From the NCBI GenBank assembly GCA_048939725.1, contig JBHLPG010000056.1, forward strand, positions 1 through 19,001: a stretch of 19,001 nt of DNA, given 5' to 3'. Both the position numbers and the translations under genes were made by a program. Under the pieces are notes generated by a model. The model was not told the DNA's origin, did no database searches, and was given only the letters and a program-made list of their open reading frames with translations. Origin of the DNA: Promethearchaeota archaeon. GTDB taxonomy: Archaea; Asgardarchaeota; Heimdallarchaeia; Hodarchaeales; Hodarchaeaceae. Shown one piece after another: positions 811-18,752 of the stretch (position 1 is its first letter; every line of letters begins with the position of its first letter).

Positions 811-816
811 ATAGCT

Positions 817-1128
817 TTGACCAAACCTCCTGTGCGCGATTCAAGGATTCCCTGTCCTAATTGCAAAAAAGGAACCCTTTTTTGGAATCCTGAAGAGAAA
901 TTATACGTTTGCACAGATTGTGGGGTTCAAGAGGCGGCTTTAAAAACATGGATTAGCGCTGCCGAGTATCGTCAGGAGAAAAAACATCGAAAACGTGAAA
1001 AAGAACGTCAATGGGCATTAGAAATATTAGGAGTGGAAGATCAGCTTACTCCTTCCAAGAAATCAAAAAAAGAACAAGAGTGGGCTGAACTAATTGATTT
1101 GATTAAAGAAAAAGAGTCTGAACCTTAA
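817..1128 (+). CDS. Zinc-ribbon protein with a charged helical C-terminal tail
   Basis: Two Cys pairs, CPNC...(15 aa)...CTDC, form a classic 4-Cys zinc ribbon. A Lys/Arg/Glu-rich tail follows (EKKHRKREKERQ, KKSKKEQEW). TTG start lies 6 nt after a GAAGTGA Shine-Dalgarno-like motif at 804-810. Only 6 nt separate it from the Roadblock gene. Confidence 0.6.
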   Translation: MTKPPVRDSRIPCPNCKKGTLFWNPEEKLYVCTDCGVQEAALKTWISAAEYRQEKKHRKREKERQWALEILGVEDQLTPSKKSKKEQEWAELIDLIKEKESEP

Positions 1129-1235
1129 AATAGTAGATTTCCCGCTAAAAAGTTACTCTGAAATATTTACCTCTGAATATGGGAGTAACGAAATTTCTCC
1201 CTTGTTTAATTAACCTAAATTTTCAAACTAATCCA

Positions 1236-1246
1236 GAGATCAATCT
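1236..1246 (+). terminator. T-rich tract (TTTTGTTTTTT), possible terminator of the Roadblock/Zn-ribbon unit
   Basis: The T4-G-T6 run lies about 110 nt downstream of the stop at 1128, within a 245-nt AT-rich spacer. Weak evidence. Confidence 0.25.
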
Positions 1247-1370
1247 TTTGTTTTTTCATGAATTTTATGTTAAATTGAAAACACTTAATTGAAGGTTAAA
1301 TAACCTCTGACTTGATAAACAACTCCACTCGAATACGGAAAACACTTTTCCATTCAGTCCTTGCAAGCAA

Positions 1371-1377
1371 AAGGTGA
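1371..1377 (+). promoter_or_regulatory. Shine-Dalgarno-like AAGGTGA upstream of ATG 1389
   Basis: AAGGTGA lies 11 nt before in-frame ATG 1389. The ORF-track GTG 1374 sits inside the motif, so ATG 1389 (MGTSERRG...) is the more plausible start. Confidence 0.4.
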
Positions 1378-2687
1378 TCCTGAAAATCATGGGTACTTCC
1401 GAAAGGCGAGGAGACATTCCTATTTACTTTTTCTTAGCCCACATTGTTTTTGATGAAGAACATGGTCCTGTATTAAATTCTTATCTAACTTATGGATTGG
1501 AAATCCCAAGAATAATTCTTCAAGGCGTTACTACTACCCTATTTACCATGGCCATTGGAGTAGGTGAACCAACAGGAGAATCTGAAACAGCTATCATTCC
1601 AATTAATGTGACGGACATCCAAGGTCGTGTATTAATTCATTCTTTTGTTATCGATGATCCCGAAGCGAGAGGAAGGAATCGAATTGAAAGTTTCATGTTG
1701 TTTATTCCGAGGTCTCATCAAGATAAATTACTTCAACACTCTCTAGCTTTTTCAAATATATTACAGGAAGCGATCCGCGAAATTAAAATCAAGAATAACC
1801 GTAAAAAAGAAAGTTATTCTTTAAACAAGGTTTTTGAGAATATTAAAACAGTTCTATTAACTAAGATCGATAATTCTATTCAAGACCAAATAAGTGATAT
1901 TTGTACCGATAAAGAAACCGTATTAGTTTCAGATGGAACTATCAGAGCTGTTCATAACATAATCTTGTCCCCAGATATAATCTCATTAGTGAACAAAATT
2001 CCTTCACTAATACAAAATTATGAGGATGAGCTTAAAACATATGGAACTTATTTTGATGCACTTCCTATCGAAATTCATGGAAAAACTTATAGTAATCACC
2101 AATTCTACTTAATAAACATCAGAAATAACTTCATAATAGCCTTTAGCTCAGGCAAAGGACGTCTGGGAAGTTTATTTAGGAATTTTCGTGAAATTCTATG
2201 GAGTTTAAGCATCCAAGGAGATCTCACTAACCAGTCCTCGATTTCACGTTATTTAATTTCAATAAGTGATGAAAGTAATCTTTTTCTTAAGAACAATTTC
2301 TTAGATAGGAGTTTTCAATTATTAAAAAGCTTTAAACCAATAATTACAGAAGTGTCCATTTCACGTTGCAATATGAATATGGTTGAGACACTCCGTACAA
2401 GCTCTGACCGTGTTGTAAAAAAACATGCTTTTATTTGCCAAATTTTTGAAGCTATTAACAATATTTGTTTACGATTATTCCGAACAGATCTGGTTCAACT
2501 GGTTTTGTCTCAACACGGTTCAAATGCTATTGCATTAAAGTGGGCAACCAATACTGAGAAGGATACTTCCTTACTCATGGTTGGGGATTCTTCCAAGGGA
2601 GTTGGACTGCTAAAGCTTGTTGGTGAACAAGTTCTGGAATACAGGGGTAAAGCTGAATCTTTTTCTAATATTAAACTAGATTTATGA
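1374..2687 (+). CDS. Hypothetical protein with three predicted alpha/beta domains (longin-like N-terminus, Roadblock/LC7-like middle and C-terminal parts), possible small-GTPase regulator
   Basis: The long ORF has good coding character, and the start is probably ATG 1389. The N-terminus reads as strand-strand-helix-strand-strand-strand-helix (IYFFLAHIVFDEE, GPVLNSYL, IPRIILQGVTTTLFTMAIG, TAIIPINV, RVLIHSFVID, IESFMLFIP, LLQHSLAFSNILQEAIREI), which is longin/uDENN-like. The middle part has Roadblock-like TVLVSDGTIRAV ... FYLINIRNNFIIAFSSGKGRLGSLFRNFREILWSL. The C-terminus has NAIALKW...SLLMVGDSSKGVGLLKLVGEQV. The function is inferred and unverified. Confidence 0.45.
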   Translation: MILKIMGTSERRGDIPIYFFLAHIVFDEEHGPVLNSYLTYGLEIPRIILQGVTTTLFTMAIGVGEPTGESETAIIPINVTDIQGRVLIHSFVIDDPEARGRNRIESFMLFIPRSHQDKLLQHSLAFSNILQEAIREIKIKNNRKKESYSLNKVFENIKTVLLTKIDNSIQDQISDICTDKETVLVSDGTIRAVHNIILSPDIISLVNKIPSLIQNYEDELKTYGTYFDALPIEIHGKTYSNHQFYLINIRNNFIIAFSSGKGRLGSLFRNFREILWSLSIQGDLTNQSSISRYLISISDESNLFLKNNFLDRSFQLLKSFKPIITEVSISRCNMNMVETLRTSSDRVVKKHAFICQIFEAINNICLRLFRTDLVQLVLSQHGSNAIALKWATNTEKDTSLLMVGDSSKGVGLLKLVGEQVLEYRGKAESFSNIKLDL

Positions 2688-2688
2688 C

Positions 2689-2695
2689 AAGGAGA
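2689..2695 (+). promoter_or_regulatory. Shine-Dalgarno AAGGAGA for the EndoQ gene
   Basis: AAGGAGA lies 7 nt upstream of TTG 2703 and only 2 nt after the stop of the preceding gene. This implies co-transcription. Confidence 0.5.
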
Positions 2696-2702
2696 ACGAG
2701 TA

Positions 2703-4088
2703 TTGGAAGTAGCAGTAGATCTACATGCTCATTCAGTTTTTGCCGGTGGAACCCAAGCCCTCTCAATAACACCCAAAACAGAAGCTGATAATCAGAAAAA
2801 GGCTATTTCTCATTTATCAAAAACGAATCAAACAATGCCATTAAAGGGTATTGATGTCATTGGTACAGGAGATTGTCAATTCACCTTATGGACTAATATA
2901 CTTAAAGAAATTCTCATTGAAGATATGGAAGGTGTCTTTCTGCTTCAAGATCAGAGAAAGACTCGCTTCATTCTACAAACAGAGATGATATTTACAGCAA
3001 AAATAGGTAAATACTCAAAAGAGACACATATTATCTTTCTTTTCCCTAATTTTTCTTCTGTGGATGAATTTCGTACATTACTAGATAGATGGGGGGTTAA
3101 ACATAAAAAAATGGCAAGACCATTTATTACCTGTAAATCCTCTAGTCAGGTTGCTCAGCGTCTTCATTCTATTTTAGATTTGGATCCTTGGATTGAAGCC
3201 ATTCCCTCCCATATAATGACACCACAAGGTGTTTTTGGAACTGGAAAAGGAAATATTCGAATTAACCACTTAGAAGATTTTTTTGGTTCTGCTACCTCAA
3301 GATTGCAAGTCTTTGAGACTGGATTATCCGCTGATCCAGAATTTTTATCTTTGATCCCAGAATTAGACGATAAAGTGCTAATTTCAAATTCTGATGCACA
3401 CTCAAGTGCTTTACATAGGATGGGACGCGAATTTACGGTGGTATCTACCTTAAAAACTGATTATAAGAATATTATCAAGGCTTTGCGTAATAATAATGTC
3501 TTGTATACTGCTGAATTTCCTCCAGAAGAAGGACGGTTTTTTCTAACAGGTCACCGAGCTGGAAGGAAACGACCAGGTTTTCATGGTGACAGTGATTACT
3601 GTTTCTTTTCTCCTCAAAATGTACCTTCTCATGATGTTTGCCCAATATGTAATAAACCTCTAACTATAGGTGTATTCCAGAGATGTGTTGAGATTAGTAA
3701 TGCTCAAGGTGGAAAAAGAGAGCTTGGAGGAACTACTTCCTTCAAAAAATTCATTCGTATGGTACCGTTGATAGATATATTGGGTCATGTGCTAGAAATA
3801 AAAACTAAGACTGCAAAATCATTAATCACGAAATATCGACAGATTATAGACATTATTGGCCCCGAACGCGTGTTATGGCAAATGGCCTCTGAAGAAGTCG
3901 AAAGTAAACTGAATGATCATATAGAAAACCACATTCTGAAAGCAATTCTCAAAGTAAAAGCTGGGGATTTTACATTTGAACCATATGGGTATGATGGAGT
4001 TTATGGTACTCTAGTAATTGGCCAGAGAGGAAATTATAAAAATGTAAATGTGATTCATTCTTCAAAACCAATTCAACAAACACTTTAA
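2703..4088 (+). CDS. endoQ: Endonuclease Q (PHP-domain nuclease acting at deaminated bases, with a Zn finger)
   Basis: The motif series matches my recollection of Thermococcales EndoQ. DLHAHS (PHP His pair), IGTGD, HIMTP, ETGLSADPEF, SNSDAHSSALHRMGREF, then the C/H-rich FFLTGHRAG...C...CPICNKPLTIGV zinc finger. Length is 461 aa. Confidence 0.8.
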   Translation: MEVAVDLHAHSVFAGGTQALSITPKTEADNQKKAISHLSKTNQTMPLKGIDVIGTGDCQFTLWTNILKEILIEDMEGVFLLQDQRKTRFILQTEMIFTAKIGKYSKETHIIFLFPNFSSVDEFRTLLDRWGVKHKKMARPFITCKSSSQVAQRLHSILDLDPWIEAIPSHIMTPQGVFGTGKGNIRINHLEDFFGSATSRLQVFETGLSADPEFLSLIPELDDKVLISNSDAHSSALHRMGREFTVVSTLKTDYKNIIKALRNNNVLYTAEFPPEEGRFFLTGHRAGRKRPGFHGDSDYCFFSPQNVPSHDVCPICNKPLTIGVFQRCVEISNAQGGKRELGGTTSFKKFIRMVPLIDILGHVLEIKTKTAKSLITKYRQIIDIIGPERVLWQMASEEVESKLNDHIENHILKAILKVKAGDFTFEPYGYDGVYGTLVIGQRGNYKNVNVIHSSKPIQQTL

Positions 4089-7247: not shown

Positions 7248-8225
7248 CTGATCTATAGCGATCGGTGGTTACCACTGTCAAGCATACTGCGAAGAATATT
7301 CAAAGGTAAGCCTGTTGAGAAATACGAAATAACTATCATTGGTCTCGACGGTGCAGGAAAAACTACAATCGTGAATCGATTATTACGCTCTGAATTTGTC
7401 CCTACAACACGAACTCTAGGTGTTAACTATCGTACTGTAAAATATCGTCAGATAGAGTTCAATTTGGTTGATTTGGGGGGGCAGGAAATCTATCGAAATC
7501 TTCTTTGGCACGATTCTTTAGATAAGGCTTCAGCTATCGTTTTTGTGTTAGATAGTGCTGATATTCGTATTTCCGAGGCATCTGAGGCTTTCTGGGATTC
7601 AATTCAGCGCAATGAAAAGGTTCCTGTCTTGTTTATTGCAAACAAAATTGATCTTCCAGGTGCTCGAGCATTTGACCGGATTGTTAAAGATCTCGATCTA
7701 CCACGTGCTCAAAGATCAGCGAGGTCCGTTGGACTTTTTCGAATCTCTGCAAAGACTGGTGAGAATTTTTACGATGCATTCGACTGGATAGCTGATATTC
7801 TCACGGGAGAAGAGTCTAAGTTTAAATGTAAGGTACGAGTGGTGATCTTAATCAATTTAGATACCCATCAGATATATACAACGAAATTCACGAACATAGA
7901 TCGTTTTGTTCTAGATCAATTGAATATGGGTATTAGTGAAACAGTAAAAGAGCTGTCAAAGAATTCAACTGGAATGGAGGTAATTACTGCGTCTGATTTG
8001 CAGCTTACTATAGTGAAGAATGATCCTTTAGTGATCGGCCTCATAATAGGCTATTCAGATTCTGTTGTGCGAGCTAAATTGATTGCTGAGAGGCTAATGA
8101 AAACAGCTTCTGCATCAATTGAAATTGATCAATTCGATTCACGAGTACTTTTAAAATTAATGAAGAAACAATGGCCTTTAGACATATACAAGCCACAAGT
8201 GCAAACTGAAGAAGAGACTGTCTGA
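7248..8225 (+). CDS. Arf/Arl-like small GTPase fused to a C-terminal longin/Roadblock-like alpha/beta domain (start codon unresolved)
   Basis: Arf-type motifs are present. P-loop GLDGAGKTT (7341-7367), TLGVNYRTVKY, G3 DLGGQ (7470-7484), NLLWHD, VFVLDSAD, G4 NKID (7641-7652), ISAKTGENFYDAFDWI. The ORF-track start GTG 7371 lies after the P-loop. The frame is open back to 7248, after TGA at 7245-7247. A non-GTPase extension of about 135 aa spans roughly 7818-8222. Confidence 0.8.
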   Translation: MIYSDRWLPLSSILRRIFKGKPVEKYEITIIGLDGAGKTTIVNRLLRSEFVPTTRTLGVNYRTVKYRQIEFNLVDLGGQEIYRNLLWHDSLDKASAIVFVLDSADIRISEASEAFWDSIQRNEKVPVLFIANKIDLPGARAFDRIVKDLDLPRAQRSARSVGLFRISAKTGENFYDAFDWIADILTGEESKFKCKVRVVILINLDTHQIYTTKFTNIDRFVLDQLNMGISETVKELSKNSTGMEVITASDLQLTIVKNDPLVIGLIIGYSDSVVRAKLIAERLMKTASASIEIDQFDSRVLLKLMKKQWPLDIYKPQVQTEEETV

Positions 8226-8228
8226 TAA

Positions 8229-10535
8229 TTAGAGATATTCTTTTATTCCCAGTAAATCCTTTCTACCGATTTCCGATTTACCTAGGAGCTTCTTTTCCAG
8301 TTCCATAAATTCTTTGATAATTCTCTCGTTAATACTGGGATGAATAGCCTTCTTGGCATCATGAAAATGACGTTGTTCAATTAATTCTGTGTTTAAATCC
8401 TCACGGAGAGCAATCATTACCGCTTCGCGGCATATTGCTGCAATATCAGCCCCTACATATCCATCTAGATCACTAGCGAGCTGAGAAAGGTTTACATCAT
8501 TACCTAACTTCATTCCGCTTGTGTGGATCTTTAGAATTTTCTCCCTAGATTTCAAGTCAGGAGGTTTCACTAAAAGTAATCGGTCAAATCTCCCAGGTCG
8601 GAGAAGGGCTGGGTCAATCATATCTGGTCGATTACTTGCTCCTAAAACCATAACATCACGTAAACTTTCTAAACCATCTATTAATGACAAAATTTGGTTT
8701 ACCACACTCTCTGTAACATGGCTTCCACCCGGAAAAGCGCCGCGGCGTGGAGCAATTGCATCTAACTCATCTAAAAAAATAATGGAAGGAGAAGCCTGCT
8801 TAGCTTTCCTGAAAACTTCACGAACGGCTTTTTCGCTTTCACCAACCCATTTTGATAATAATTCAGGTCCTCGAATAGCGATGAAATTGGCTTGACTTTC
8901 AGTAGCGACCGCTTTAGCCAAAAGGGTTTTTCCTGTGCCAGGAGGGCCATAAAGAAGAATGCCATGAGGAGGAGTGACACCATGGCGTTGGAAAATCTTA
9001 GGATGAGCTATAGGCCATTCGACAGCCTCAATAAGTTGTTGTTTCACTGTTTCTAGTCCTCCGATGTCTTCCCAATGGACATTTGGGATTTCAAGCAGTA
9101 CTTCCCTCATAGCTGATGGTTCTGTTATCTTAAGTGCTTCATCAAAGTTTTCTTTTGACACAACTAACTTCGAAAGAATCTCAGGAGTAAGGGGCTTGTC
9201 AAAATCAATTTTAGGCAGGACTTTTCTGAGAGTATGCATTGCAGCTTCTTTAGTAAGAGCAGCAATATCTGCTCCAACAAATCCATGAGTTTTAGCCGCA
9301 TATTCATGTAGGTCAACATCATCAGCTAAAGGCATTCCTCTAGTATGAACTAATAAGACCTCGTAACGGCCATTTTTATCTGGAACTCCGATTTCGATTT
9401 CTCTATCAAATCGGCCAGGCCGACGCAATGCAGGGTCAAGAGCATTCGGACGATTAGTCGCTCCAATTACAATGACTTTACCACGGCTCTTTAAACCATC
9501 CATTAAAGCGAGAAGTTGAGCTACAACACGTCTTTCTACTTCACCAGTAACCTCTTCCCGTTTCACAGCGATAGAGTCCAATTCATCTATGAAAATAATG
9601 CTAGGTGCCTCTTTTTCTGCATTTTGAAATATTTCCCGAATACGTTGTTCACTCTCTCCATAAAATTTAGACATAATTTCTGGACCCGCTATTGAAACAA
9701 AATTCACTCCTGATTCATTTGCAACTGCTTTCGCTAACAGAGTTTTTCCTGTTCCAGGGGGCCCATGTAATAAAACTCCTTTTGGGGGATCAATACCTAG
9801 ACGCTCAAAAAGTTCGGGGTGCTTCATCGGAAGTTCAATCATCTCCCGAACCCTTTTTATTTCCTCTGAAAGCCCTCCAATATCTTCATATGTCACACGT
9901 GGCATCATTCTAAGATCCTTAGGAGCTTCTTCGACAATTGTAACTTCTGTTGTATCTCCTACAGTTACGATGCCTTCTGGATCTGTTGCTACAACTATAA
10001 CTTTAATTTCACCCAAAGAAACAGGGCTTGTTGCCCCAAAGAATCTAGATATAAAATCATCCATTCCTGTACCAGTAGTTCCTCCTCCAGAAGGAGGTAT
10101 CTTCCTGATTTGTCCTGTGATAACTAGTAAATCTCCCCGAGAAACAGGATGATTCTGTAAGCGTTCACGAATAATCTCAGATCGAACTAAAAGACGAATT
10201 CTTTCTTCTGCGGGAGCAATCGTAATACGTTTTGCTTCTCGCTTCCTGATTTTCCGAATTCGAACTGTTTCCCCTAAACTTGTCCCCACATTTCCTCGAA
10301 TCAATCCATCCATCCGAATGATTTTTTTTCCCCGATCTTCTCTTCTTCCAGGTATGACCAATGCACCTGTTTTCTTACCTCCCGTCCTTTCACTGGCAAT
10401 CTCTACAATATCTCCAGTTTCTAATCCATTTTCCCGCATAATAGAATAGTCAACTCTGACTAATCCTCGGCCAACATCACCCTGGTTGGCTTCAACTACT
10501 TTTAAAAGTAGTTCCTTCTCATTATCATCTGTCAT
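8229..10535 (-). CDS. cdc48: CDC48/VCP/p97-type AAA+ ATPase (N domain plus D1 and D2)
   Basis: 768 aa with two Walker A motifs, [15 protein letters not shown]. Walker B motifs are IIFIDELD and IIFLDELD. Second-region-of-homology motifs are [23 protein letters not shown] and [23 protein letters not shown]. The N domain resembles the CDC48 N domain ([17 protein letters not shown]). Confidence 0.95.
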
Positions 10536-10602
10536 TTGACAAACAATTCCCTAATGCTTTTTTTCCTTAATTTAATCTAAGTTTGAAAGAATTATAATTA
10601 TT

Positions 10603-11409
10603 TCACCTGTCATTACCTGTTGAATTAATCAATTTATGAAGATATGCTTTTGCAGCAAGGACATCTTTCTTAGCAACCTCTACTGAGTCAGCTGTTTTAG
10701 AAATAATCAGGTGTATATTTTTTTCCTCCTGATATGCCTCAGGAAGTGATTTTATCCATACATCATGCTTTTGACGTACTTGTATTAAGAATGGGGCAAG
10801 TAATGATTCATCTGTAAAAGCTGAGGTGAACTCTGTCTCATAATAACCAATTTGCTTTTGATTTTTTAAAACAGAGATTTTCGTCTCAACTGCTTTATAC
10901 ATCTCCTTCATCTCACGGGGAACCCCTGGAAGACAAAAAATCCATGTATTCGAAAAATCGTGGATAAAAAAGATGCCAGGAGCAGTTCCTACTGGATTAT
11001 CAATAATTTCAGAACCTACTGGAAGAATTGCCATTTTTTTACGTGCTGGTGTAATCTCAGCAGTGTCTACTAGACCCTTATCAAATAGGTCTTTGTAACG
11101 CTTAGTTACCATTGATAAGGCTTCAATGTTAAGTTCAGTATTCACATTTAATGCTTTAGCTAAGAAGATTGCAGTCGAATCATCCCAAGTTGGGCCTAAT
11201 CCTCCTGTAATTAGAATAAGGCGATATCGACCAGAAGATATAAGGAGAGAAATTTCATTTGGAACTACATCTGGGTCATCAGGAAGGGTCAAGATTTTCT
11301 GAACAACAAAACCAAGGTTTGTGAGTTTTTTCGCAAGAAAGTTAGCGTTTGTGTTAACGGTTTTCCCTGACAGTAATTCATTTCCAACAGAAATCAAGCA
11401 CACATTCAT
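10603..11409 (-). CDS. cinA: CinA-like protein (MoCF-binding/COG1058 domain only, no PncC deamidase domain)
   Basis: MNVCLISVGNELLSGKTVNTNANFLAKKL, ILITGGLGPTWDD, GTAPGIFF and CLPGVPREMKEMY align closely with the CinA N-terminal domain as I recall it. At 268 aa it is too short to include the C-terminal NMN-deamidase domain. Confidence 0.7.
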   Translation of the reverse strand: MNVCLISVGNELLSGKTVNTNANFLAKKLTNLGFVVQKILTLPDDPDVVPNEISLLISSGRYRLILITGGLGPTWDDSTAIFLAKALNVNTELNIEALSMVTKRYKDLFDKGLVDTAEITPARKKMAILPVGSEIIDNPVGTAPGIFFIHDFSNTWIFCLPGVPREMKEMYKAVETKISVLKNQKQIGYYETEFTSAFTDESLLAPFLIQVRQKHDVWIKSLPEAYQEEKNIHLIISKTADSVEVAKKDVLAAKAYLHKLINSTGNDR

Positions 11410-11791: not shown

Positions 11792-14700
11792 ATGCTTGTT
11801 AAAATGTCATCGGAAGGAAAGCTTCTGGTTTCAAAAGAAGTACTTCATAAAATTAGAGATTTAGTGACTGAGTTACGCTCAATTGACCCCACAGTGCAAG
11901 TTGTCTCCGCATTAAATGAAGCCCAAAAATTAGTGATAGAAATCGAAAAACTAGAGAAAGCCTTACCAAAAGCTGGTTTCTTTAAAAAGAGGGGAATTAA
12001 TAAAACTCTTACTCAAGATAAGGAAAAGTACAACAAGCTGACAGAGGAGTTACTAAACGCTCTTTTGGTTGGATTTCGTAAAATTTACTTTGATCTGGCA
12101 AATAACATCAAAGAAATAGCTAAATTTATCCCCCAGGAAACAGAAACTATTCGGAAACTGCAAATTCCAAGCTTTGATGTAAACGAAATCCTGAAGTTTA
12201 GTTCACAAGTTCTGAGGACATATAACCAGATTTCTGAGGTTTTACGAGGGAAAAATGTTTCAATTTTGTTATTTAATCGTGAGATTATCGAGCTTTATGG
12301 AAAATTTGTTAATTTTGATGAAGAAAAGGTTCAAGTGACAAATCAGACGACAAAAACAAGTATTCATGTGATGACAATACCCGATTTACTTGAAGTTTAT
12401 AGTCTTTTAGATGCTGAAAATGCGTATCTAAAGCAGCGGAGGAAAGGTACAGAAGGCAAAATACAATTGGCAATTGTTCAAATGTCCTCTGAACTACAAC
12501 AGCATATTGATACTGTTGCATCAATTGGTTTAGACCTTTGGAATAAAATTGATATTTTGAAAGAGGAAGTTCAAGACGTTCAGACAAGTGCGGACAGAAC
12601 AACTTCAGTTGAAACTCTTATCTCGTTAGAGAAACGACTTAATTCCCTTAGTAATGAGTTTATCAACATTTTACGGACATATGAAATATCCCTTAAGACA
12701 GAAACAGATGATCAAATTGGACGAATAATTCAGATCTTTGGGAAGGAAGGACTAGAGTCTACTTTTTCCCCAGCTCCAGAAACAGATATATCATCTACAA
12801 TTATTCCAACTATTATCCAGGATATCGAGAAAATTCGTTCTTGGCGCCAACAGCAGATAATTGCTACAAAAAAGATTCTTAGTACATCAGAGCTAATCAA
12901 TTCATCCAAAGCAATTCGTGCGATGAAGATACCAGTCCCTCCTAACATTGAGAAAGATGTACGGGCGATAGAGAAAGAAGCAGCAAAAACAAGCGACCTT
13001 CAAGAGTGGGTAGAACTAGCAAAAAGGTATCATGACTTGAAAACATCCCTTGCTGGCGAATGCCAGAATTATTTTTTCCGACTACTCGAAAATCCACATA
13101 TTCAAGAGGTCATTAACCTAAGTGAAGGGCCACAGATACCTACCATTCGCGATTTTGAAGCTCTTAGTCCCAGTGAATTAAGTAGTAAAGCTCGTGAGAT
13201 CAAGGATTGGGAGACTCGTTTGGTTGCTTATTTTTCTAAACCCGCTCAACAAAGCCTCAGACAGAATTTATTAAATTTATATGATTCTCGTGAAAGTTTA
13301 CGGGATATTATGTCACCTGAGTTGAAAGAACAAATCGATTATCAAAGAAAGCAGAAGATTGCAGAGGAAATTGATATTCGTGACTTAGTTCATGAGATTG
13401 AGGGGTTGCATAGACTTAATGCAAACATTAAAACTGAGCTTTGGAATAAAATAGATAATGAGATACATCCCATTTACAATCAACTTACAAATCTCGAAAC
13501 AATTCCTCCAAAATTAAAAATACATGTTCCAATTCTCACAATAGACGATTTAAAATCCTTCCGAGAAGAAGCCAGTGAAGCAGCTCAAAAAAGTATTCAG
13601 GAGCTGTTAGATGAATATGAAAAGATACCACTGTGGAAATACAAGATATCCTCCCGAATCCGTGAAAATTTGAAAGCAATTCCTTTTCCTTTAATACCTG
13701 TAGAGACACGATTCGATTTAAGGGAAAAACGTAATCAAATTGTTGATTTAATAGATGATTTTTCAGAACAAGGGAACATTGAAGCCGTAATCAAAGAATA
13801 TATTTCTTTCTTAGAAACAATTGAAGAAAATAAGAAGGAAATTCTTATTGAATTGAAAAAACAAATAGGGAATCTTGAAGGAGTCGATAGAAGACTCTTT
13901 AGATTATTAAAATCTCGGAAAACTAGTTTAATCTATTCTACAGATAAAGAAATAGATAATCTTGATTATTCTGAAGCTTTAACAGAATTCTGGCAATTAT
14001 CTGCCTTTATCGATCGAAAAGCTTCAACATTAGCAGAGCAAATGGAACGTGAGATTTCCTCTCATATACAGGACTATTCAAAACTTCCTAGTCAGTATTC
14101 AGGTTTTTTTGATGAAACCTTGAAACTTATGGAAGAGAAAATGGATGAAATTAAAACCCATAAAGATATTGTCCGTTTAGTTAATGTTTTTGAGAGTTAT
14201 AGCTTGGAAAGCTTACAAATGGCAAAAGATTCCTTAGCCAAACTTCATCAAAATCTCTATAATTGGCTGAGGGTTAGTCTCCCTAGGATAAATGAAATAA
14301 CACCTCTTCATGAAGCGATTTTTAGTGCGGAGAAGAAAGTTGCTGATTTTGAAGCTGAGGAAGTATCTCATGAGCGATTAGCTCACAAATTAAGACAGTT
14401 GATATTCCTTTATGATACGGAAATCTTGGCTGTTTTACTAGCACATGGAGTTCAGGAATCACGAAGGGTTCTGAAAAATGTTAACGACTTGAAAGATGTC
14501 GGGATCAATATTATTGAGTATGTTGGGAGTTATATCGAAAATTTCAGTCAAATAATTGTCAAAAACCAAGAAGATGTTCAATTACGAGAAGTAACTGATG
14601 TTTTCATCGAAATTGATAATTTACAGACTGATACTAAAGCTTGTCGTGAAATTCGATCCATGGGAAAACGCTATATTACTGAAATTCAAGATTCCGTGGA

Positions 14701-15307
14701 ATATTCATTTAATCATTATCAAATTGACTTACGTCAGGATGAACGAGTTGATCTAGCATATCTTAGCAAATTTCAAGAAATAGCAACGACTGATCACGTT
14801 AGTCGTTTAACTGAAGCTATCCTTGAATTAGCTGCAGTTAGAACCTCTGTAATTGAAATTATGAAAGCAATTGAGAAAAGTCGAAATGCTGCTCTACAGG
14901 CCGAGTTGGGGGAGTTAGAATATTATTCTGACATTCAAGAAGTGTTCAAACGATATACAAAGGAAGCATCAGAAAAGATATTCCCATTGTCAGAATTAAT
15001 TAAAGCTCGTGAGGAATTTCTTGATTCTCATGATCTTAGATATATTCTAGAGTTATTACCAAAAATAGATGAGCAAAGAAATGAGTGGAAAAACGTATCA
15101 ATACAGTTAAACCATTGGCACCGAGCTGTTCGAATGTTTCGACCTCGTTACACCCCAACAGAGAGTAGAGATGAAAATTTACGATTTTATAAAGAAATAT
15201 CTAAGAAAATCAAAGATACATATCCTCACAATGAAGTAATTCGTTCTTATTTAAGTCTAGTAATGAAATTACTAATTGAAATTAAATCTGGAATAAAATT
15301 GGAGTAA
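11792..15307 (+). CDS. Giant (1171 aa) all-helical/coiled-coil protein with internal periodicity, no recognisable enzymatic motif
   Basis: Uninterrupted 3.5-kb ORF rich in Glu/Lys/Ile/Leu and poor in Gly. Pro occurs mainly at helix boundaries. No Walker A (GxxxxGK[ST]) is present. An alternative start is ATG 11804. It lies 40 nt upstream of the tubulin-like gene on the same strand. Confidence 0.8.
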   Translation: MLVKMSSEGKLLVSKEVLHKIRDLVTELRSIDPTVQVVSALNEAQKLVIEIEKLEKALPKAGFFKKRGINKTLTQDKEKYNKLTEELLNALLVGFRKIYFDLANNIKEIAKFIPQETETIRKLQIPSFDVNEILKFSSQVLRTYNQISEVLRGKNVSILLFNREIIELYGKFVNFDEEKVQVTNQTTKTSIHVMTIPDLLEVYSLLDAENAYLKQRRKGTEGKIQLAIVQMSSELQQHIDTVASIGLDLWNKIDILKEEVQDVQTSADRTTSVETLISLEKRLNSLSNEFINILRTYEISLKTETDDQIGRIIQIFGKEGLESTFSPAPETDISSTIIPTIIQDIEKIRSWRQQQIIATKKILSTSELINSSKAIRAMKIPVPPNIEKDVRAIEKEAAKTSDLQEWVELAKRYHDLKTSLAGECQNYFFRLLENPHIQEVINLSEGPQIPTIRDFEALSPSELSSKAREIKDWETRLVAYFSKPAQQSLRQNLLNLYDSRESLRDIMSPELKEQIDYQRKQKIAEEIDIRDLVHEIEGLHRLNANIKTELWNKIDNEIHPIYNQLTNLETIPPKLKIHVPILTIDDLKSFREEASEAAQKSIQELLDEYEKIPLWKYKISSRIRENLKAIPFPLIPVETRFDLREKRNQIVDLIDDFSEQGNIEAVIKEYISFLETIEENKKEILIELKKQIGNLEGVDRRLFRLLKSRKTSLIYSTDKEIDNLDYSEALTEFWQLSAFIDRKASTLAEQMEREISSHIQDYSKLPSQYSGFFDETLKLMEEKMDEIKTHKDIVRLVNVFESYSLESLQMAKDSLAKLHQNLYNWLRVSLPRINEITPLHEAIFSAEKKVADFEAEEVSHERLAHKLRQLIFLYDTEILAVLLAHGVQESRRVLKNVNDLKDVGINIIEYVGSYIENFSQIIVKNQEDVQLREVTDVFIEIDNLQTDTKACREIRSMGKRYITEIQDSVEYSFNHYQIDLRQDERVDLAYLSKFQEIATTDHVSRLTEAILELAAVRTSVIEIMKAIEKSRNAALQAELGELEYYSDIQEVFKRYTKEASEKIFPLSELIKAREEFLDSHDLRYILELLPKIDEQRNEWKNVSIQLNHWHRAVRMFRPRYTPTESRDENLRFYKEISKKIKDTYPHNEVIRSYLSLVMKLLIEIKSGIKLE

Positions 15308-15347: not shown

Positions 15348-16718
15348 ATGTCAATTGAAGGTGGACCAGAATCAGAGATCTTTGCAATTGGAATTGGTGA
15401 ATGTGGTAGTAATCTTGTGGGAAGCTACCTAGCCAGATCTAAGAAAGGCGAGCTACCTCAACGTATTAGAGAATATCTGGTACTAAATACTGATCGTGGC
15501 GATTTATTAAAAGCCCGAAAAAAATATTCCATTTCAAAAAATCGAACTCTTCTCTATTCAGACGCTGAAATTGGTGTCGGGGGAAAATTCTCTGCGGGAT
15601 ACGAATCGGTTATGAACTCTCAAGATATTATTCTAAATCAATTACAAGGTTTGGGCTACGAAGGGATTAGTGGTTTTTGCATTTTTACCAGCTTTGGGGG
15701 TGGAACTGGATGTGGGGGGACTCCTGCTTTAATACAATTGTTAAGAAAGCGGTTCGCTGAGGAGGAAAAGCGTAAGATCTTCATTTATGTTTTTGGGGTC
15801 TTACCATTTGTTAATCAATCATCTGAAGCAGTAAATAGTGTCTGGGCTTTATCAAAATTACTCCGACTTCAGCTTGAGGAAGGAAATATGGGACCTGATT
15901 TAATACTTCTTCTTTCTAACAGAACAATGCTTGAGAGGGTTTTAAGCTGGCAACGTGGGGAATCCGTTGATTTGTTGAGTCGTCAAATAGGAAAAGATCT
16001 AGCTGACTTGAGCAGTGAGCAAGTAAGCTCCAGTATTCCTGCTGTTATTGGCCAAGACGGGACAGCTTATCCAGCTCAGCTAGAAGAAGCATTTGTAGAA
16101 TTGGTTAACCCTCTAGCCTTGGAATCCATAGCTGAAATGTTATCCCCAGGAGTACCTGAAGTTGGGAAAGAAGTCTTACCTACAACTGATATTGGTGATT
16201 TCGCTCTAAAATTAGATAGTGTGGTTGTTCCAGCTATGTTTGATGATTTAGCTGTTTTTCCAGAAGTTGGAGGGATGGATTCACAGCTTTCTACTGCAGT
16301 TGAATATACTCTTTCTAATTGTAGCTTGACAGATATGGGAACAAACCCCACAGCTTCTTCTGTTTTTTCGGTACTCAGTGGACCACAGAATATTGCACGC
16401 GTAGAATATGATCCGCTTTTGAAAAAAGCATTGGCACCTTTTTTAGCTAAAGGAGCAAGTATCTCTCCAACATATTGTGCCTATGATGATGATAATACAA
16501 GAGCATCTCTTCTCCTGTTATTCGGCCTTCCAAAAATCCCAGAACTTCATGATATTCTTGAAGAAGCTAAAGCACTCATAAACCTTCATAGTGGAGACTC
16601 TGAATTAAAACAACATTGGTTTAAACGGTCTAAAGGTACAACACGAAAGGAATTGGAAGAAGCAGTGAGCGATTTAGAAAAATTATTTGGATATTATATT
16701 AAACCAGAAAAAGTTTAA
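15348..16718 (+). CDS. Divergent tubulin/FtsZ/CetZ-superfamily GTPase
   Basis: T1-like GIGECGSNLVG (15390-15422), NTDRGDL (15486-15506), tubulin signature GGGTGCGG followed by TPALIQLL (15696-15719 onward), VLPFVNQSSEAVNSVWALS, LLLSNRTML, and T7-like TTDIGDF followed by ALKL (16182-16202 onward). Confidence 0.8.
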   Translation: MSIEGGPESEIFAIGIGECGSNLVGSYLARSKKGELPQRIREYLVLNTDRGDLLKARKKYSISKNRTLLYSDAEIGVGGKFSAGYESVMNSQDIILNQLQGLGYEGISGFCIFTSFGGGTGCGGTPALIQLLRKRFAEEEKRKIFIYVFGVLPFVNQSSEAVNSVWALSKLLRLQLEEGNMGPDLILLLSNRTMLERVLSWQRGESVDLLSRQIGKDLADLSSEQVSSSIPAVIGQDGTAYPAQLEEAFVELVNPLALESIAEMLSPGVPEVGKEVLPTTDIGDFALKLDSVVVPAMFDDLAVFPEVGGMDSQLSTAVEYTLSNCSLTDMGTNPTASSVFSVLSGPQNIARVEYDPLLKKALAPFLAKGASISPTYCAYDDDNTRASLLLLFGLPKIPELHDILEEAKALINLHSGDSELKQHWFKRSKGTTRKELEEAVSDLEKLFGYYIKPEKV

Positions 16719-16732: not shown

Positions 16733-17794
16733 TTGGACAGAAAAGATCCCCCAAGGTTTGAATACACTAACAAAGAACATCCAAACTCTAATGAATCTAA
16801 TGAAAAATCATCTGACCAAGATGAAGAAAAACTCCCTTCATCTGATTTTTGGATGTCCAGGGGAAACATGGGTGAGAAGATAAATATCCTTATAGGATTA
16901 AATCTCGTTCTTATAAACTTAGTTTCCTCATTTATGCTAACTAAGGATGATCCTATTCCTGGTGATTTGGTTAAAAGTCTAATCAAAACCCAGGAATTTC
17001 TTAATAAAATGGTCATGCAGCCAGAAAAAGGGTTAGAAATTTTAGAAAATATTGAAATAGTTTACTCCAAAGTGGCCACATTAATGGAGGGAGTTACAAA
17101 TTCTACTATGTCAACCATTGCTTTAGAAAAGAAACCTCAGGATGTCCCAGAAAATGTCTTTGGTTTATTTCAAAGAAATGCAGTCTACCTAGATAAATGG
17201 GGGATAATTGAAAGTATCGAAAACTTAATCGCTTCTTACTCAAATTTATCTCATATAGGTTTTCCGAATTTTTACTTCACTGCGAGTAAAGAGTTGCATC
17301 GTTATGAATTGACACAGGATCCTGTTTCAAACCAATATGATATTATTCAAATACCCTCCTTTCAACTTAGAAATCTGGTAAGTAAGTTATTACGTGAAGC
17401 ACCCGCAGCCCGTTTATTACAAAATCTTCGGAAAATGTTTCCTGCAGAAGAAGATTCAGCTCTTACTTCAATAGAACAAGATGAAATCCATAACATTGTA
17501 GAATTGTATTATAAAAACATTTCAGAATATTTTAGCGGAACTCGCAGCTTGCAGGATTCTCTCCGCATCTCATCAGGGATCTTAAAGAACTATAACCTAG
17601 GAACAGGAGATTTGGAATCAAGAATACCTAATGTTTCTTTTAATATTACAAAAGAAATCAATTTAGAGCTTCAAAATACGGAGAATATATTGAAACAGTA
17701 TATATTATCTGAAACCATCATCCTGATCCATCGATTGAATGATTCACTCTTACAGAGTGAAAGATTTGTCCTCTTCTTAAGACATCTAAAATAA
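16733..17794 (+). CDS. Hypothetical protein with an acidic/polar N-terminal tail, one hydrophobic (possible transmembrane) segment and a helical C-terminal domain of about 280 aa
   Basis: The ORF lies directly downstream of the tubulin-like gene. The hydrophobic stretch INILIGLNLVLINLVSSFML covers aa 50-69 (16880-16939). The N-terminal 45 aa are rich in Asn/Ser/Glu/Asp/Lys. Alternative starts are ATG 16853 and ATG 16868. Confidence 0.6.
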   Translation: MDRKDPPRFEYTNKEHPNSNESNEKSSDQDEEKLPSSDFWMSRGNMGEKINILIGLNLVLINLVSSFMLTKDDPIPGDLVKSLIKTQEFLNKMVMQPEKGLEILENIEIVYSKVATLMEGVTNSTMSTIALEKKPQDVPENVFGLFQRNAVYLDKWGIIESIENLIASYSNLSHIGFPNFYFTASKELHRYELTQDPVSNQYDIIQIPSFQLRNLVSKLLREAPAARLLQNLRKMFPAEEDSALTSIEQDEIHNIVELYYKNISEYFSGTRSLQDSLRISSGILKNYNLGTGDLESRIPNVSFNITKEINLELQNTENILKQYILSETIILIHRLNDSLLQSERFVLFLRHLK

Positions 17795-17798
17795 TAAC

Positions 17799-17804
17799 TT
17801 TTTT
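17799..17804 (+). terminator. Oligo-T (T6) tract, possible archaeal termination signal
   Basis: CTTTTTTA begins 4 nt after the stop at 17792-17794. Archaeal RNA polymerase commonly terminates at T-runs. Weak evidence. Confidence 0.25.
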
Positions 17805-17820
17805 ATGAAATAAGACATAA

Positions 17821-17885: not shown

Positions 17886-18752
17886 ATGGGAATAGAAGAT
17901 GGTATTAAGAATATCCAACAGATGACAATAGAGAATAAGCAATCCCTTAATAGAATTAAAGATGTTGTAAGCTCACTTCAAGGATTTCAAGATCCTTCTG
18001 AATCAATCCAAAAGCTCTCAATGGTAATACTTGGTTTTGAAGAAAACATTAATTCCTTGCTTAAACTAGTTGAATCCTCTCGAATAAGTTCAGAGTTACA
18101 ATCTTCAATTGAAAGCCTTCCTCAAATGATCTCAAGCTTAGAGGAATCACTTGGTAAGATTCTTAGTACTTTTGAAAAAACTTCTGAAGAAACAAAAAAT
18201 GATTTAAAATTTATAAAAGTCAGTTACGTTGAAGACGTTGTTGGAAATATGCGTAATTTATCTAACAAAATTACTGAAGAGGTGGGTGGTTCCAACAACA
18301 GAATTACCGCGTTATATGAAGCAACAGTTGACCATTTTGGGGAAATAGTGGAAAAACTTAACAATGTTGAAAGTAGTTTAAACGCTCTAGTTGAGAATCA
18401 AGCAGATCAATTAGCCACAGTAGCAGATCTCAGGGATCGTGTTAGTGCAATCATTCAGGTTGAGTTAGCATCACTAAGAGATCGAATTGCAATATATCTT
18501 GAGACATCGATAAATGAGTTAAAAACATCAGTAACAGAACGCTTGGCTACCCAGGATGGTACTCTTCAAAACTTGACAAACGTCACCCGACAATTAACCC
18601 AGAACATTAATGCTTTACCTGAATTAGTAAAACAGCAAATAGAAGCAGCAGTTGAAACAAGAGTCACCACTGAACTCACTTCAATGGAAAAAGAAATGAA
18701 AAAGATGACTGCTTTTATTATCAGGGCCATGAAAGACAAAGATTCTTCATGA
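17886..18752 (+). CDS. Coiled-coil/helical-repeat protein (288 aa), function unknown
   Basis: ATG with a GAGGT Shine-Dalgarno motif. The sequence is almost free of Pro and Gly and is rich in Ser/Glu/Leu/Ile/Asn/Thr/Gln with heptad-like spacing (e.g. LASLRDRIAIYLETSINELKTSVTERL, LQNLTNVTRQLTQNINALPELVKQQIEAAVE). Confidence 0.7.
   Translation: MGIEDGIKNIQQMTIENKQSLNRIKDVVSSLQGFQDPSESIQKLSMVILGFEENINSLLKLVESSRISSELQSSIESLPQMISSLEESLGKILSTFEKTSEETKNDLKFIKVSYVEDVVGNMRNLSNKITEEVGGSNNRITALYEATVDHFGEIVEKLNNVESSLNALVENQADQLATVADLRDRVSAIIQVELASLRDRIAIYLETSINELKTSVTERLATQDGTLQNLTNVTRQLTQNINALPELVKQQIEAAVETRVTTELTSMEKEMKKMTAFIIRAMKDKDSS

Follow-up and report, generated by a model that had tools for sequence, protein, structure and literature searches.

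A CetZ-like tubulin-superfamily gene of Asgard archaea and the two partner genes conserved at its side

The window analyzed here, a stretch of Asgard archaeal DNA of 19,001 nucleotides, contains an open reading frame (15348-16718) whose product is identical to GenBank MFX1506004.1 (100% identity), where it is labelled 'hypothetical protein'. This locus raises the question of which branch of the tubulin superfamily the protein belongs to and what part the genes on either side of it may play. Pfam PF00091 matched aa 10-171 of the 456-aa protein with an E-value of 1.4e-17 (65.1 bits; gathering cutoff 33), and more than 150 homologues were recovered at E < 1e-147, which together place the superfamily match beyond chance. 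The AlphaFold model (pLDDT 83.5, pTM 0.84) has two domains and contains the GTPase domain, H7, T7 and a C-terminal domain; strands S1-S6 of the GTPase domain reach to approximately aa 190, H7 spans aa 243-268, and T7 spans aa 269-281. The open reading frame is a genuine gene, and both sequence and model indicate a tubulin/FtsZ-superfamily GTPase, in agreement with the initial annotation. The positions of the features discussed below are given in Table 1.

Table 1. Features of the tubulin-like gene and its neighbors, in window coordinates.
Feature	Position	Strand	Details
Large partner gene	11792..15307	+	1171 aa, all alpha-helical, no known family
Asg.Tub-family tubulin-superfamily gene	15348..16718	+	ATG start, 456 aa
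N-terminal GTPase domain	15375..15860	+	aa 10-171 (PF00091)
T1 loop G-I-G-E-C-G-S-N	15390..15413	+	aa 15-22
T4 nucleotide-binding signature GGGTGCG, with Cys122	15696..15716	+	aa 117-123
Family-specific H6-H7 insertion	15963..16079	+	aa 206-244, pLDDT < 50
H7, C-terminal domain and three C-terminal helices	16074..16715	+	aa 243-456
T7-like loop P-T-T-D-I-G-D	16179..16199	+	aa 278-284
Small partner gene	16733..17794	+	353 aa, matching no known family; begins at TTG, as annotated in GenBank
Coiled-coil-like gene	17886..18752	+	288 aa, Hodarchaeales A-type loci only

The lineage of the protein is one that already has a name. OLS26264.1, which aligned with our protein at E 5e-162 (57% identity, 99% coverage), is an entry of the alignment Asg.Tub-C.afa.fa published for Asg.Tub, a group named by Santana-Molina, del Saz-Navarro and Devos (2023, Front Microbiol; PMC9871819) on the basis of four sequences, of which OLS26264.1 is one. 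Based on the presence of this entry in the published alignment and on the 57% identity, the sequence places our protein within Asg.Tub.

The mixed tubulin/CetZ/FtsZ motif signature proposed for the protein was recovered in full, with GIGECGSNLVG at aa 15-25, LVLNTDRGDL at aa 44-53, GGGTGCGGTPALIQLL at aa 117-132 (its Cys being C122), VLPFVNQSSEAVNSVWALS at aa 151-169, LLLSNRTML at aa 187-195, and TTDIGDFALKL at aa 279-289. In an alignment of 73 sequences, N47/T48, G117-G124 including C122, N191, D281 and D284 were invariant, and these positions were conserved across 85 loci. The T1 residues G15, G17, E18, G20 and N22 were also invariant in this alignment, with C19 and T279/T280 at least 90% conserved. 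Compared to the superfamily T4 motif, GGGTG[ST]G, the glycines and Thr are invariant and a Cys replaces the Ser/Thr, GGG[TS]GCG being present in 150/151 family proteins and at all 85 loci. The Cys singled out in the initial annotation is a hallmark of the family, though not unique to it: among the approximately 94 neighboring tubulin-superfamily proteins whose motif was readable, 5 carry Cys at this position as well. The T7 motif PTTD[LI][AG]D was found at 83 of the 85 loci, and the acidic residues that had been noted in it, D281 and D284, are presumed to be catalytic.

The T7 loop has Thr where Asn is usual, the phosphate-binding T4 loop carries an unusual Cys, and the gene is tightly coupled to the large helical partners described below, three features that raise the possibility of a non-polymerising GTPase or pseudo-tubulin that functions as a regulatory or scaffolding subunit with two helical proteins. 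We consider this quite unlikely. No variation was seen in any nucleotide-contact loop or in the two T7 acidic residues, as is expected only under selection for inter-subunit GTPase activation, and CetZ likewise has no T7 Asn (consensus VxDxxD).

The initial annotation had called attention to a long spacing before T7 and attributed it to an acidic/helical segment inserted after LLLSNRTML. The distance from T4 to T7 is 163 aa, compared to a mode of 100-119 aa in neighboring families. Residues of approximately 213-257 had no match when Asg.Tub was aligned with CetZ by HHalign, and pLDDT values below 50 in the AlphaFold model were confined to the insertion. Within the family, this segment varies from 45 to 64 aa, is poorly conserved, and consists of 21% Asp+Glu. 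Sequence and model support a real H6-H7 insertion of approximately 40 aa that forms an acidic loop of variable length; it is predicted to be disordered rather than helical.

The relationship of Asg.Tub to CetZ and to tubulin was gauged by HHalign profile comparisons. Against 38 CetZ sequences, Asg.Tub aligned over its full length (368 columns) with a probability of 99.9 and an E-value of 2.3e-31. Against tubulins, the alignment covered 106 columns, solely in the T3-T6 region, at E 2.6e-11, which is weaker than the result with just two CetZ sequences (E 2.9e-15). By profile, Asg.Tub appears to be nearer to CetZ than to tubulin, the HHalign comparison being a measure of relatedness and not of CetZ membership. 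Such data weigh against a protein of the tubulin lineage, that is, a stem relative of eukaryotic tubulin that forms tubules or mini-microtubules, as might be suspected from the likeness of its T1 sequence GECGSN to the tubulin GQCGNQ, from its tubulin-like length and C-terminal helices, and from one published tree in which Asg.Tub lies beside the tubulins (PMC9871819, Fig. 4). The top 50 Foldseek matches in the PDB were also all beta-tubulin or OdinTubulin (best matches at E ~1e-18, TM 0.61-0.67), but this ranking is biased towards tubulin due to the very many tubulin chains in the PDB compared to three CetZ chains among the entries seen. Identity to tubulins in the structural alignments was 14-18%, where a eukaryotic-type tubulin would be expected to reach roughly 30% or more against alpha/beta/gamma tubulin, and Tubulin_C (PF03953) was not found in either the full protein or its C-terminal half. 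The published study found the tree position of Asg.Tub to be unstable, noted CetZ-type indels in the alignment, and judged the group to be CetZ-like, not tubulin-like (PMC9871819). We therefore regard a tubulin-lineage origin, in the manner of OdinTubulin or AtubA/B, as very unlikely.

A closer relationship to CetZ could mean that the protein is a divergent CetZ orthologue, producing cell-shape filaments as in Haloferax, with its flanking genes being incidental. CetZ proteins were the best PDB sequence matches (4b46 at 2.6e-12 and 3zid at 4e-8), with the CetZ chains aligning across the N-terminal GTPase domain, and CetZ_C was present in 50 of the 105 nearest representatives from outside the family (TubZ-like_C was present in 2). 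One Asg.Tub family member is annotated 'Tubulin-like protein CetZ', a label in keeping with CetZ orthology. CetZ_C (PF21011) itself, matched by true CetZ neighbors at 1e-26 to 1e-68, was not found in the full protein at E <= 0.1 nor in aa 243-456 or aa 177-456 at E <= 10, and co-linearity of the C-terminal domain with that of CetZ was apparent solely by profile-profile alignment. Among 1.84 billion representative proteins, Asg.Tub forms an isolated island bounded by a wide gap, the E-values of its matches dropping from 1e-139 to 1e-39 and the remainder being 1e-16 or weaker, so that the tight clustering within a well-sampled CetZ/FtsZ subfamily, named at the outset as the result that would count against the initial annotation, was not seen. 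Published trees also place Asg.Tub outside CetZ, and the genome context of CetZ is unrelated to that of Asg.Tub (PMC9871819); Brown and Duggin (2023) set the CetZ boundary at the Thermococcales CetZ and refer to the Asgard proteins as 'non-canonical'. Taken together with the conservation of the flanking genes described below, these results make CetZ orthology unlikely.

The C-terminal region (aa 243-456) matched none of the Pfam C-terminal families. Neither FtsZ_C (PF12327) nor TubZ-like_C (PF22453) was found in the full protein or its C-terminal half, and the score against the FtsZ equivalog TIGR00065 was 31.2 bits, below the cutoff of 295.2. The C-terminal helices contain strongly conserved residues (W424, F425, K429, G430 and F447). 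A search of the protein for a membrane-targeting sequence, a C-terminal tail peptide or another recognisable interaction motif found none.

We also examined the genes that flank Asg.Tub. The published study had noted that coiled-coil genes of no known function adjoin the Asg.Tub genes (PMC9871819). We found a large partner gene immediately 5' of Asg.Tub on the same strand at 65 of 67 evaluable loci (median gap 17 nt) and a small partner gene immediately 3' on the same strand at 76 of 80 (median gap 14 nt), the small partner being missing solely next to a second (B-type) Asg.Tub paralog. The partners range across genomes from 870 to 1400 aa (large) and from 300 to 390 aa (small), and their homology extends between classes (E 3e-50, 3e-18, 4e-22 and 5e-20; 6e-71 and 3.6e-29 for Baldrarchaeia). 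At Baldr and Sif loci the cassette genes have start/stop overlaps or 1-nt gaps, and in at least 11 GenBank genomes they have adjacent locus tags. It is doubtful that the coiled-coil-like gene at 17886..18752 is part of the cassette. That the same two flanking genes nearly always lie beside Asg.Tub suggests a three-part cytoskeletal module; retention at 65/67 and 76/80 loci, with co-duplication of one of them, makes it hard to uphold the notion that they are incidental neighbors.

Neither partner matched a family in Pfam, NCBIfam or PDB sequences, and partner profiles run against the PDB sequences gave nothing beyond coiled-coil noise (E >= 0.01). The model of the large partner, built from a shallower alignment, has 45 helices (pLDDT 81), with a pTM of 0.42 that represents low global confidence, such that a known fold may be missed; the best Foldseek match (E 0.033, TM 0.07) did not amount to a fold match. 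We considered the large partner as a possible tubulin binder resembling GCP/Spc97, TBCD or TOG and found no support for this, the match to a gamma-TuRC chain having an E-value of 5.4, although matches at the level of single domains could be missed. Internal repeats were sought by hhalign over nine segments of the large partner, none of which exceeded 50% probability. A role for the small partner as a membrane anchor likewise found no support. The copy in the window has a single hydrophobic stretch (aa 52-70, KD 2.09), and the corresponding maxima in the LC-3 and Thor orthologues are 1.3-1.6, in stretches that contain polar residues; these weak stretches leave a conserved transmembrane helix unsupported.

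A filament gene and accessory genes in a three-gene layout are typical of TubZRC. The cassette could by this likeness encode a TubZ/PhuZ-like DNA-segregation system, with Asg.Tub as the motor and the partners acting like TubR and TubY as DNA-binding adaptor and regulator, and the two neighboring representatives with TubZ-like_C would be in line with such a system. We find this highly improbable. In addition to Asg.Tub having no TubZ-like_C match, searches of both partners for HTH, RHH and other DNA-binding domains found none, no centromere-like repeat arrays were found near the cassette, and PADLOC and PHROG searches revealed no membership in defence or phage families. In closed genomes the cassette lies on the chromosome; it is syntenic and appears to be passed on vertically rather than carried by mobile elements.

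The Asg.Tub family comprises more than 150 protein clusters, with 126 matches in a scan of species-representative genomes, and by sequence it is found only in Asgard archaea. The family includes Baldr-, Borr-, Sif- and Hermod-labelled genomes, and the cassette was found in Heimdall-, Thor-, Baldr-, Borr- and Sif-labelled genomes. The family tree broadly agrees with how the source genomes are labelled taxonomically. Copies from Heimdall-, Thor- and Borr-labelled genomes share 52-57% identity, pointing to strong purifying selection on Asg.Tub. The Hodarchaeales have a second copy of both the large partner and the tubulin-like gene, the second paralog being found in four genomes, where a large partner of its own accompanies it (homologous end to end, E 1e-59). 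Based on its gene context in a closed genome, this paralog lies elsewhere in the genome, so the two genes do not form a side-by-side A/B pair such as might be sought in a tubulin-lineage protein. Alongside the fold, the motif conservation and the family membership, the observations made here include what is new, a conserved same-strand cassette with two defined partner families and a co-duplicated pair.

A literature search for biochemical or cellular work on Asg.Tub members found none. From sequence and model, we favor, with a probability of roughly 0.6, a CetZ-like protein on a branch apart from canonical CetZ that likely forms a GTP-driven filament with two dedicated partners. We infer GTPase activity, polymerisation, partner interaction and a cellular role along the following lines. 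The N-terminal domain would bind GTP through intact T1-T6 loops, with GGGTGCG as T4. Subunits would stack head to tail, with the T7 loop (PTTDxxD, D281/D284) of one subunit entering the nucleotide pocket of the next to activate hydrolysis, resulting in dynamic GTP-dependent protofilaments like those of FtsZ, CetZ and tubulin. Asg.Tub would be co-transcribed, and is probably translationally coupled, with the genes for the large partner, predicted to be elongated and helical throughout (870-1400 aa), and the small partner, predicted to be helical (300-390 aa). The most likely role of these partners is to bind the filament, be it as adaptor, bundler, nucleator or regulator, and to link it to a cellular target, this interaction being read from gene adjacency, which does not prove physical contact. 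For partner binding, the best candidate surfaces would be the H6-H7 loop, given its acidic and disordered character, and the C-terminal helices with their conserved residues.

A broader and more tentative possibility is that Asg.Tub and the two helical proteins constitute an ancestral, Asgard-wide three-component cytoskeletal system, a third tubulin-superfamily machine beside FtsZ1/2 and the rare tubulins, in which the large protein would act as an archaeal counterpart to such filament-associated proteins as adaptors, nucleators or bundlers, and the family would have branched near the CetZ-to-tubulin transition. If this three-component reading is true, it would offer a model, far more widespread and tractable than the Asgard tubulins, of how tubulin-family filaments gained dedicated binding partners before eukaryogenesis. 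Asg.Tub occurs across several Asgard classes, including the Hodarchaeales, an order now in culture, and bona fide tubulins are found in ~1% of Asgard genomes (PMC13394414). With two partners nearly always present and one of them co-duplicated, a 'hypothetical protein' becomes a target for three-gene reconstitution with defined boundaries.

Among known systems, CetZ (4b45, 4b46, 3zid) is the nearest characterised family by profile, with both domains co-linear. Asg.Tub and CetZ have in common the GGGTGxGG-P context of T4, LP...E in T5 and xxDxxD in T7. Asg.Tub is set apart from CetZ by the ~40 residues added between H6 and H7, by Cys in place of Ser in T4, and by the GECGSN of T1; it also fails CetZ_C, lies outside the published CetZ boundary, is Asgard-restricted, and has a different conserved gene context. 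The Asgard tubulins (OdinTubulin, 7evb; AtubA/B, 9f6t) share the superfamily fold, a similar length and the T1 Cys with Asg.Tub, but differ in their low identity to it, in a profile match limited to T3-T6, and in Tubulin_C. Halo.Tub, a haloarchaeal CetZ-like group that is sister to Asg.Tub with weak support (62) in the Fig. 6 tree of PMC9871819, is similarly an orphan CetZ-like group with coiled-coil neighbors of no known function; the two groups have separate long stems (~2.0 and 1.8 substitutions per site) and C-terminal HMMs that do not cross-match (PMC9871819), and the Halo.Tub genes are quasi-tandem copies, unlike the Asg.Tub cassette. The Prosthecobacter BtubA/B genes, as outlined in PMC9871819, are co-transcribed with BtubC, an all-helical partner that binds and stabilizes the filament. 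The likeness of this system to the cassette is one of analogy only, BtubC being a TPR 'kinesin light chain-like' protein whereas the cassette partners have no TPR, recognisable repeats or fold match. The closest counterpart is Asg.Tub as first described (PMC9871819), whose length, motifs and orphan C-terminal domain our protein shares; that study reported no function, specific partners, second paralog or motif analysis for the group, and the latter three are found here.

The peptide motifs that the initial annotation read in the tubulin-like protein were all found at the residue numbers it reported, including Cys122 in GGGTGCGG. Residues 10-171 match the Tubulin/FtsZ GTPase domain of Pfam (PF00091; E 1.4e-17; 65 bits, gathering score 33), which confirms the assignment to the tubulin superfamily far above chance; the other 280 residues match no Pfam family. 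A 100% identical protein is deposited in GenBank as MFX1506004.1 ('hypothetical protein ACFFDC_07800'), and the nearest relatives, at 82-97% identity, come from Hodarchaeales/Heimdallarchaeia MAGs, closed chromosomes among them. Neighboring genes in the window are consistent with an Asgard archaeon, encoding Cdc48, an Arf-family GTPase, a Roadblock/LC7 protein, a folliculin/longin-like protein, Nre, and IF-2B.

Conservation was scored on an alignment of 73 diverse homologues. Invariant residues are found in or beside loop T1 (F12, I14, G15, G17, E18, G20, N22; C19 in at least 90%), at N47 and T48, in T3 (G76, G78, G79), T4 (G117-G119, G121, C122, G123, G124, P126; T120 in at least 90%), T5 (L152, P153, F154, Q157, E160), and T6 (S190, N191), in helix H7 (F249, N254, P255), and in the C-terminal region (W424, F425, K429, G430, F447). 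In T7, P278, D281, and D284 are invariant and T279 and T280 are present in at least 90%; the acidic residues, which the initial annotation took to be retained, are thus kept as in CetZ (consensus VxDxxD). An AlphaFold2 model based on the same alignment is confident (mean pLDDT 83.5, pTM 0.84) and has a canonical layout: a Rossmann-like GTPase domain with strands S1-S6, the core helix H7 (243-268) followed by the T7 loop and H8 (282-287), and a C-terminal domain containing a beta-sheet and three helices (398-414, 419-429, 433-450). The pLDDT falls below 50 only at residues 1-6, 206-244, and 453-456.

The protein is a new member of Asg.Tub, an uncharacterized Asgard group named by Santana-Molina et al. 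(PMC9871819), whose published alignment includes OLS26264.1; this sequence (P0069 in our searches) shares 57% identity with the window protein across 99% of the query (E 5e-162). Those authors reported that the tree position of Asg.Tub flips between tubulins and CetZ with the analysis used, that its C-terminal HMM matches nothing else, that it carries CetZ-type indels, and that it is surrounded by unknown genes, often of coiled-coil type; their conclusion was that CetZ, and not tubulin, is the closer relative. Their Fig. 6 tree gives Asg.Tub a stem of about 2 substitutions per site and makes it sister to Halo.Tub with weak support (62) (PMC9871819). Brown and Duggin (2023) drew the CetZ boundary at Thermococcales proteins and put Asgard proteins among 'non-canonical' tubulin-superfamily members. 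Later papers on Asgard tubulin and FtsZ use CetZ as outgroup or comparison only and do not treat the Asg.Tub family, and tubulin-family proteins go unmentioned in papers that describe cultured Hodarchaeales or the structure-based annotation of Asgard archaea.

Searches of solved structures placed CetZ first, both with the single sequence (3zid, 3.4e-7; 4b46, 6.6e-6) and with the family profile (4b46, 2.6e-12; 3zid, 4e-8; 4b45, 1.7e-7), followed by OdinTubulin (1e-5), BtubA and beta/gamma tubulins (about 5e-5), and AtubA (1.2e-4); all of these alignments were confined to the GTPase domain. By profile-profile comparison, the match to 38 CetZ sequences extended over 368 columns across both domains (probability 99.9%, E 2.3e-31), as against 165 columns for two canonical CetZ sequences (E 2.9e-15), 106 columns for seven tubulins (alpha, gamma, Btub, and OdinTubulin, with sequences from the PMC9871819 supplement; E 2.6e-11), and E 7e-8 for two artubulins. 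No match was obtained to CetZ_C (PF21011), FtsZ_C, or Tubulin_C, even with the C-terminal half alone at E <= 10, and the protein scored 31 bits against a cutoff of 295 for the FtsZ equivalog. Although the initial annotation described the sequence correctly and chose the right superfamily, the group to which the protein belongs had been named before and resembles CetZ more than tubulin. An exhaustive HMMER scan of 1.84 billion representative proteins with the Asg.Tub-family profile yielded 204 proteins with E below 1e-3, of which 29 were below 1e-10 and only 7 below 1e-30. E-values of 4e-212 and 5e-139 were obtained for two full-length representatives of the family and 1.6e-39 for a single outlier, the remaining matches being 6e-16 or weaker and limited to the GTPase domain. 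CetZ_C is carried by 50 of the 105 full-length representatives nearest to the family but outside it, FtsZ_C by 8, TubZ-like_C by 2, and Tubulin_C by 1. Judged by these searches, the family is an isolated island in sequence space with CetZ as its nearest characterized neighbor. The outlier, P0247 (locus L086), is the sole protein bridging the family and other tubulin-superfamily proteins; it lacks a large partner, and its stop codon overlaps the start of the next gene, whose 262-aa product has a transmembrane-like helix at the N-terminus and an 'IPTF' motif that recalls the small partner. This locus may represent a simpler form related to the three-gene module described below.

Two sequence features mark the family. 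The motif GGG[TS]GCG was found in 150 of 151 Asg.Tub-family proteins and in all 85 genomic loci; at the position equivalent to Cys122, neighboring tubulin-superfamily representatives have Ser (49), Asn (14), Thr (14), Gly (7), Cys (5), or Ala (4). Cys122 is therefore a hallmark of the family, although not exclusive to it. T4 and T7 lie 163 residues apart, compared to a mode of 100-119 in neighboring representatives, and residues ~213-257 have no counterpart in CetZ by HHalign. Across the family the H6-to-H7 segment measures 45-64 residues, is 21% Asp+Glu, and is poorly conserved in its second half. The insertion proposed in the initial annotation is thus real, acidic, and present in every family member, but in place of an inserted helical element the pLDDT values predict a disordered acidic loop.

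Features of the window and of related loci
Feature	Position	Strand	Length (aa)	Remark
Roadblock/LC7-like	319-810	+		
Zinc ribbon	817-1128	+		
Folliculin-N/longin-type protein	1374-2687	+	437	PF11704, E 1.6e-7
Unknown protein	2703-4088	+	461	
Arf-family GTPase	7281-8225	+		listed ORF starts at GTG 7371, past the P-loop
Large partner	11792-15307	+	1171	40-nt gap to tubulin-like gene
Tubulin-like protein	15348-16718	+	456	ATG start
Small partner	16733-17794	+	353	14-nt gap from tubulin-like gene
Coiled-coil-like protein	17886-18752	+	288	directly after cassette
Inserted gene, L016	4154-7762		1202	between large partner and tubulin-like gene
Inserted gene, L017	5325-7646		773	between large partner and tubulin-like gene
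P0247 region, L086	8001-10149			

The tubulin-like gene lies between two genes for helical proteins, the large and small partners, and this three-gene cassette is conserved across Asgard archaea. The arrangement of the window recurs in Heimdall LC-3 and Thorarchaeota loci, with homology in the large partner (E 3e-50 and 3e-18, respectively) and the small partner (E 4e-22 and 5e-20). A scan of one genome per GTDB species gave 126 matches, from which 80 loci were fetched, their genomes being labeled Hodarchaeales/Heimdall, Thor, Hermod, Sif, and Borr; partners were called with HMMs built for both flanking proteins. Where enough clean flank was available, the large partner was immediately upstream in 65 of 67 loci (median gap 17 nt) and the small partner immediately downstream in 76 of 80 (median gap 14 nt). 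In the two upstream exceptions, L016 and L017, an extra unknown gene is inserted, the large partner of L016 being one gene further upstream; the inserted gene matches neither partner HMM, and both loci are from related Heimdall/Hodarchaeota MAGs. All four downstream exceptions are a second paralog, the B-type. The three genes also stand together in a Baldrarchaeia locus (1-nt gap and 8-nt overlap; HMM E-values 6e-71, 6e-146, and 3.6e-29), and locus tags of at least 11 GenBank genomes independently give the same adjacency. Of this neighborhood the three core genes alone are universal; both the 288-aa coiled-coil gene downstream and the MoCF/Cdc48/Arf synteny upstream are lineage-specific. Clades in an NJ tree of the family (Heimdall, Thor, Borr/Sif, Baldr) roughly follow the taxonomic labels of the source genomes, suggesting mostly vertical inheritance. 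Members of the Baldrarchaeia type (P0244) share a 90% cluster with entries labeled as Odinarchaeota, Bathyarchaeota, and Thermofilum MAGs; these labels probably represent binning or labeling errors rather than occurrence outside Asgard archaea.

Neither partner matched a Pfam, NCBIfam, PADLOC, or PHROG family or a PDB sequence. The large partner is predicted to form 45 helices and no strands (pLDDT 81) with low global confidence (pTM 0.42); no internal repeats were detected and no fold match was significant (best E 0.033, TM 0.07), so that a GCP-, TBCD-, or TOG-like identity is unsupported, a gamma-tubulin-complex chain reaching only E 5.4. In the small partner, a stretch of ~200 residues toward the C-terminus is conserved, and the N-terminal hydrophobic helix is not convincingly transmembrane across orthologues. 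Between Hodarchaeales and Thor, the partners are 20-27% identical compared to 57% for the tubulin-like protein, and by this measure they evolve much faster. In four genomes of Hodarchaeales, one of them the closed chromosome CP070695.1, a B-type copy (about 54% identity) occurs alongside a complete A-type cassette. The B-type copy lacks a small partner, but a separate large partner of ~1140 aa lies ahead of it and is homologous over its whole length to the 1171-aa protein of the window (E 1e-59). This co-duplication is strong evidence that the large partner and the tubulin-like gene are functionally coupled.

Other genes of the window were also considered. For the Arf-family GTPase, the in-frame codons just 5' of 7371 read ...ILRRIFKGKPVEKYEITIIGLDGAGKTTIV, the G1 motif, and the stretch from the last stop to 7371 contains no ATG, GTG, or TTG; a non-canonical start codon or a mis-call is the probable explanation. 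At its C-terminus the product extends ~140 aa past the GTPase domain. The same-strand run at 319-4088 (+) looks like an Asgard longin/roadblock cluster of small-GTPase regulators. The 288-aa gene keeps its position in 16 Hodarchaeales-type loci only, and may have its own promoter given the T6 run (17800-17805) behind the small-partner stop codon. When the window (7371-11409) is compared with loci L001, L005-L020, and L057, Arf-like GTPase, Cdc48, and MoCF-domain genes hold their place ahead of the cassette in 10-13 loci of Hodarchaeales; an Arf gene and AAA fragment are likewise upstream in LC-3, and B-type locus L004 is also flanked by Arf-family GTPases and a Roadblock protein. The nearness of Arf and Roadblock genes to the cassette and the B-type locus may be chance, since Asgard genomes encode many small GTPases.

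The complete fold, the invariant nucleotide-contacting loops, and the retention of both T7 acidic residues suggest that Asg.Tub is most likely a polymerizing GTPase, with predicted GTP-dependent head-to-tail polymerization and polymerization-activated hydrolysis. The cassette is probably translationally coupled, and this, together with its tight spacing and the co-duplication, argues that the putative filament would work together with both helical proteins; the conserved helices at the C-terminus and the disordered acidic loop may be docking sites. A TubZ-type segregation role is without support: searches for centromere-like repeats, for DNA-binding domains, and for signals of mobile elements found none. 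To the published description of Asg.Tub our analysis adds the Cys hallmark, the disordered acidic insertion, the isolation in sequence space, a wider spread among Asgard classes, and the three-gene module with its co-duplicated partner. In kind the protein is ordinary, yet it represents a well-defined, widespread, and experimentally untouched candidate for an Asgard cytoskeletal element.
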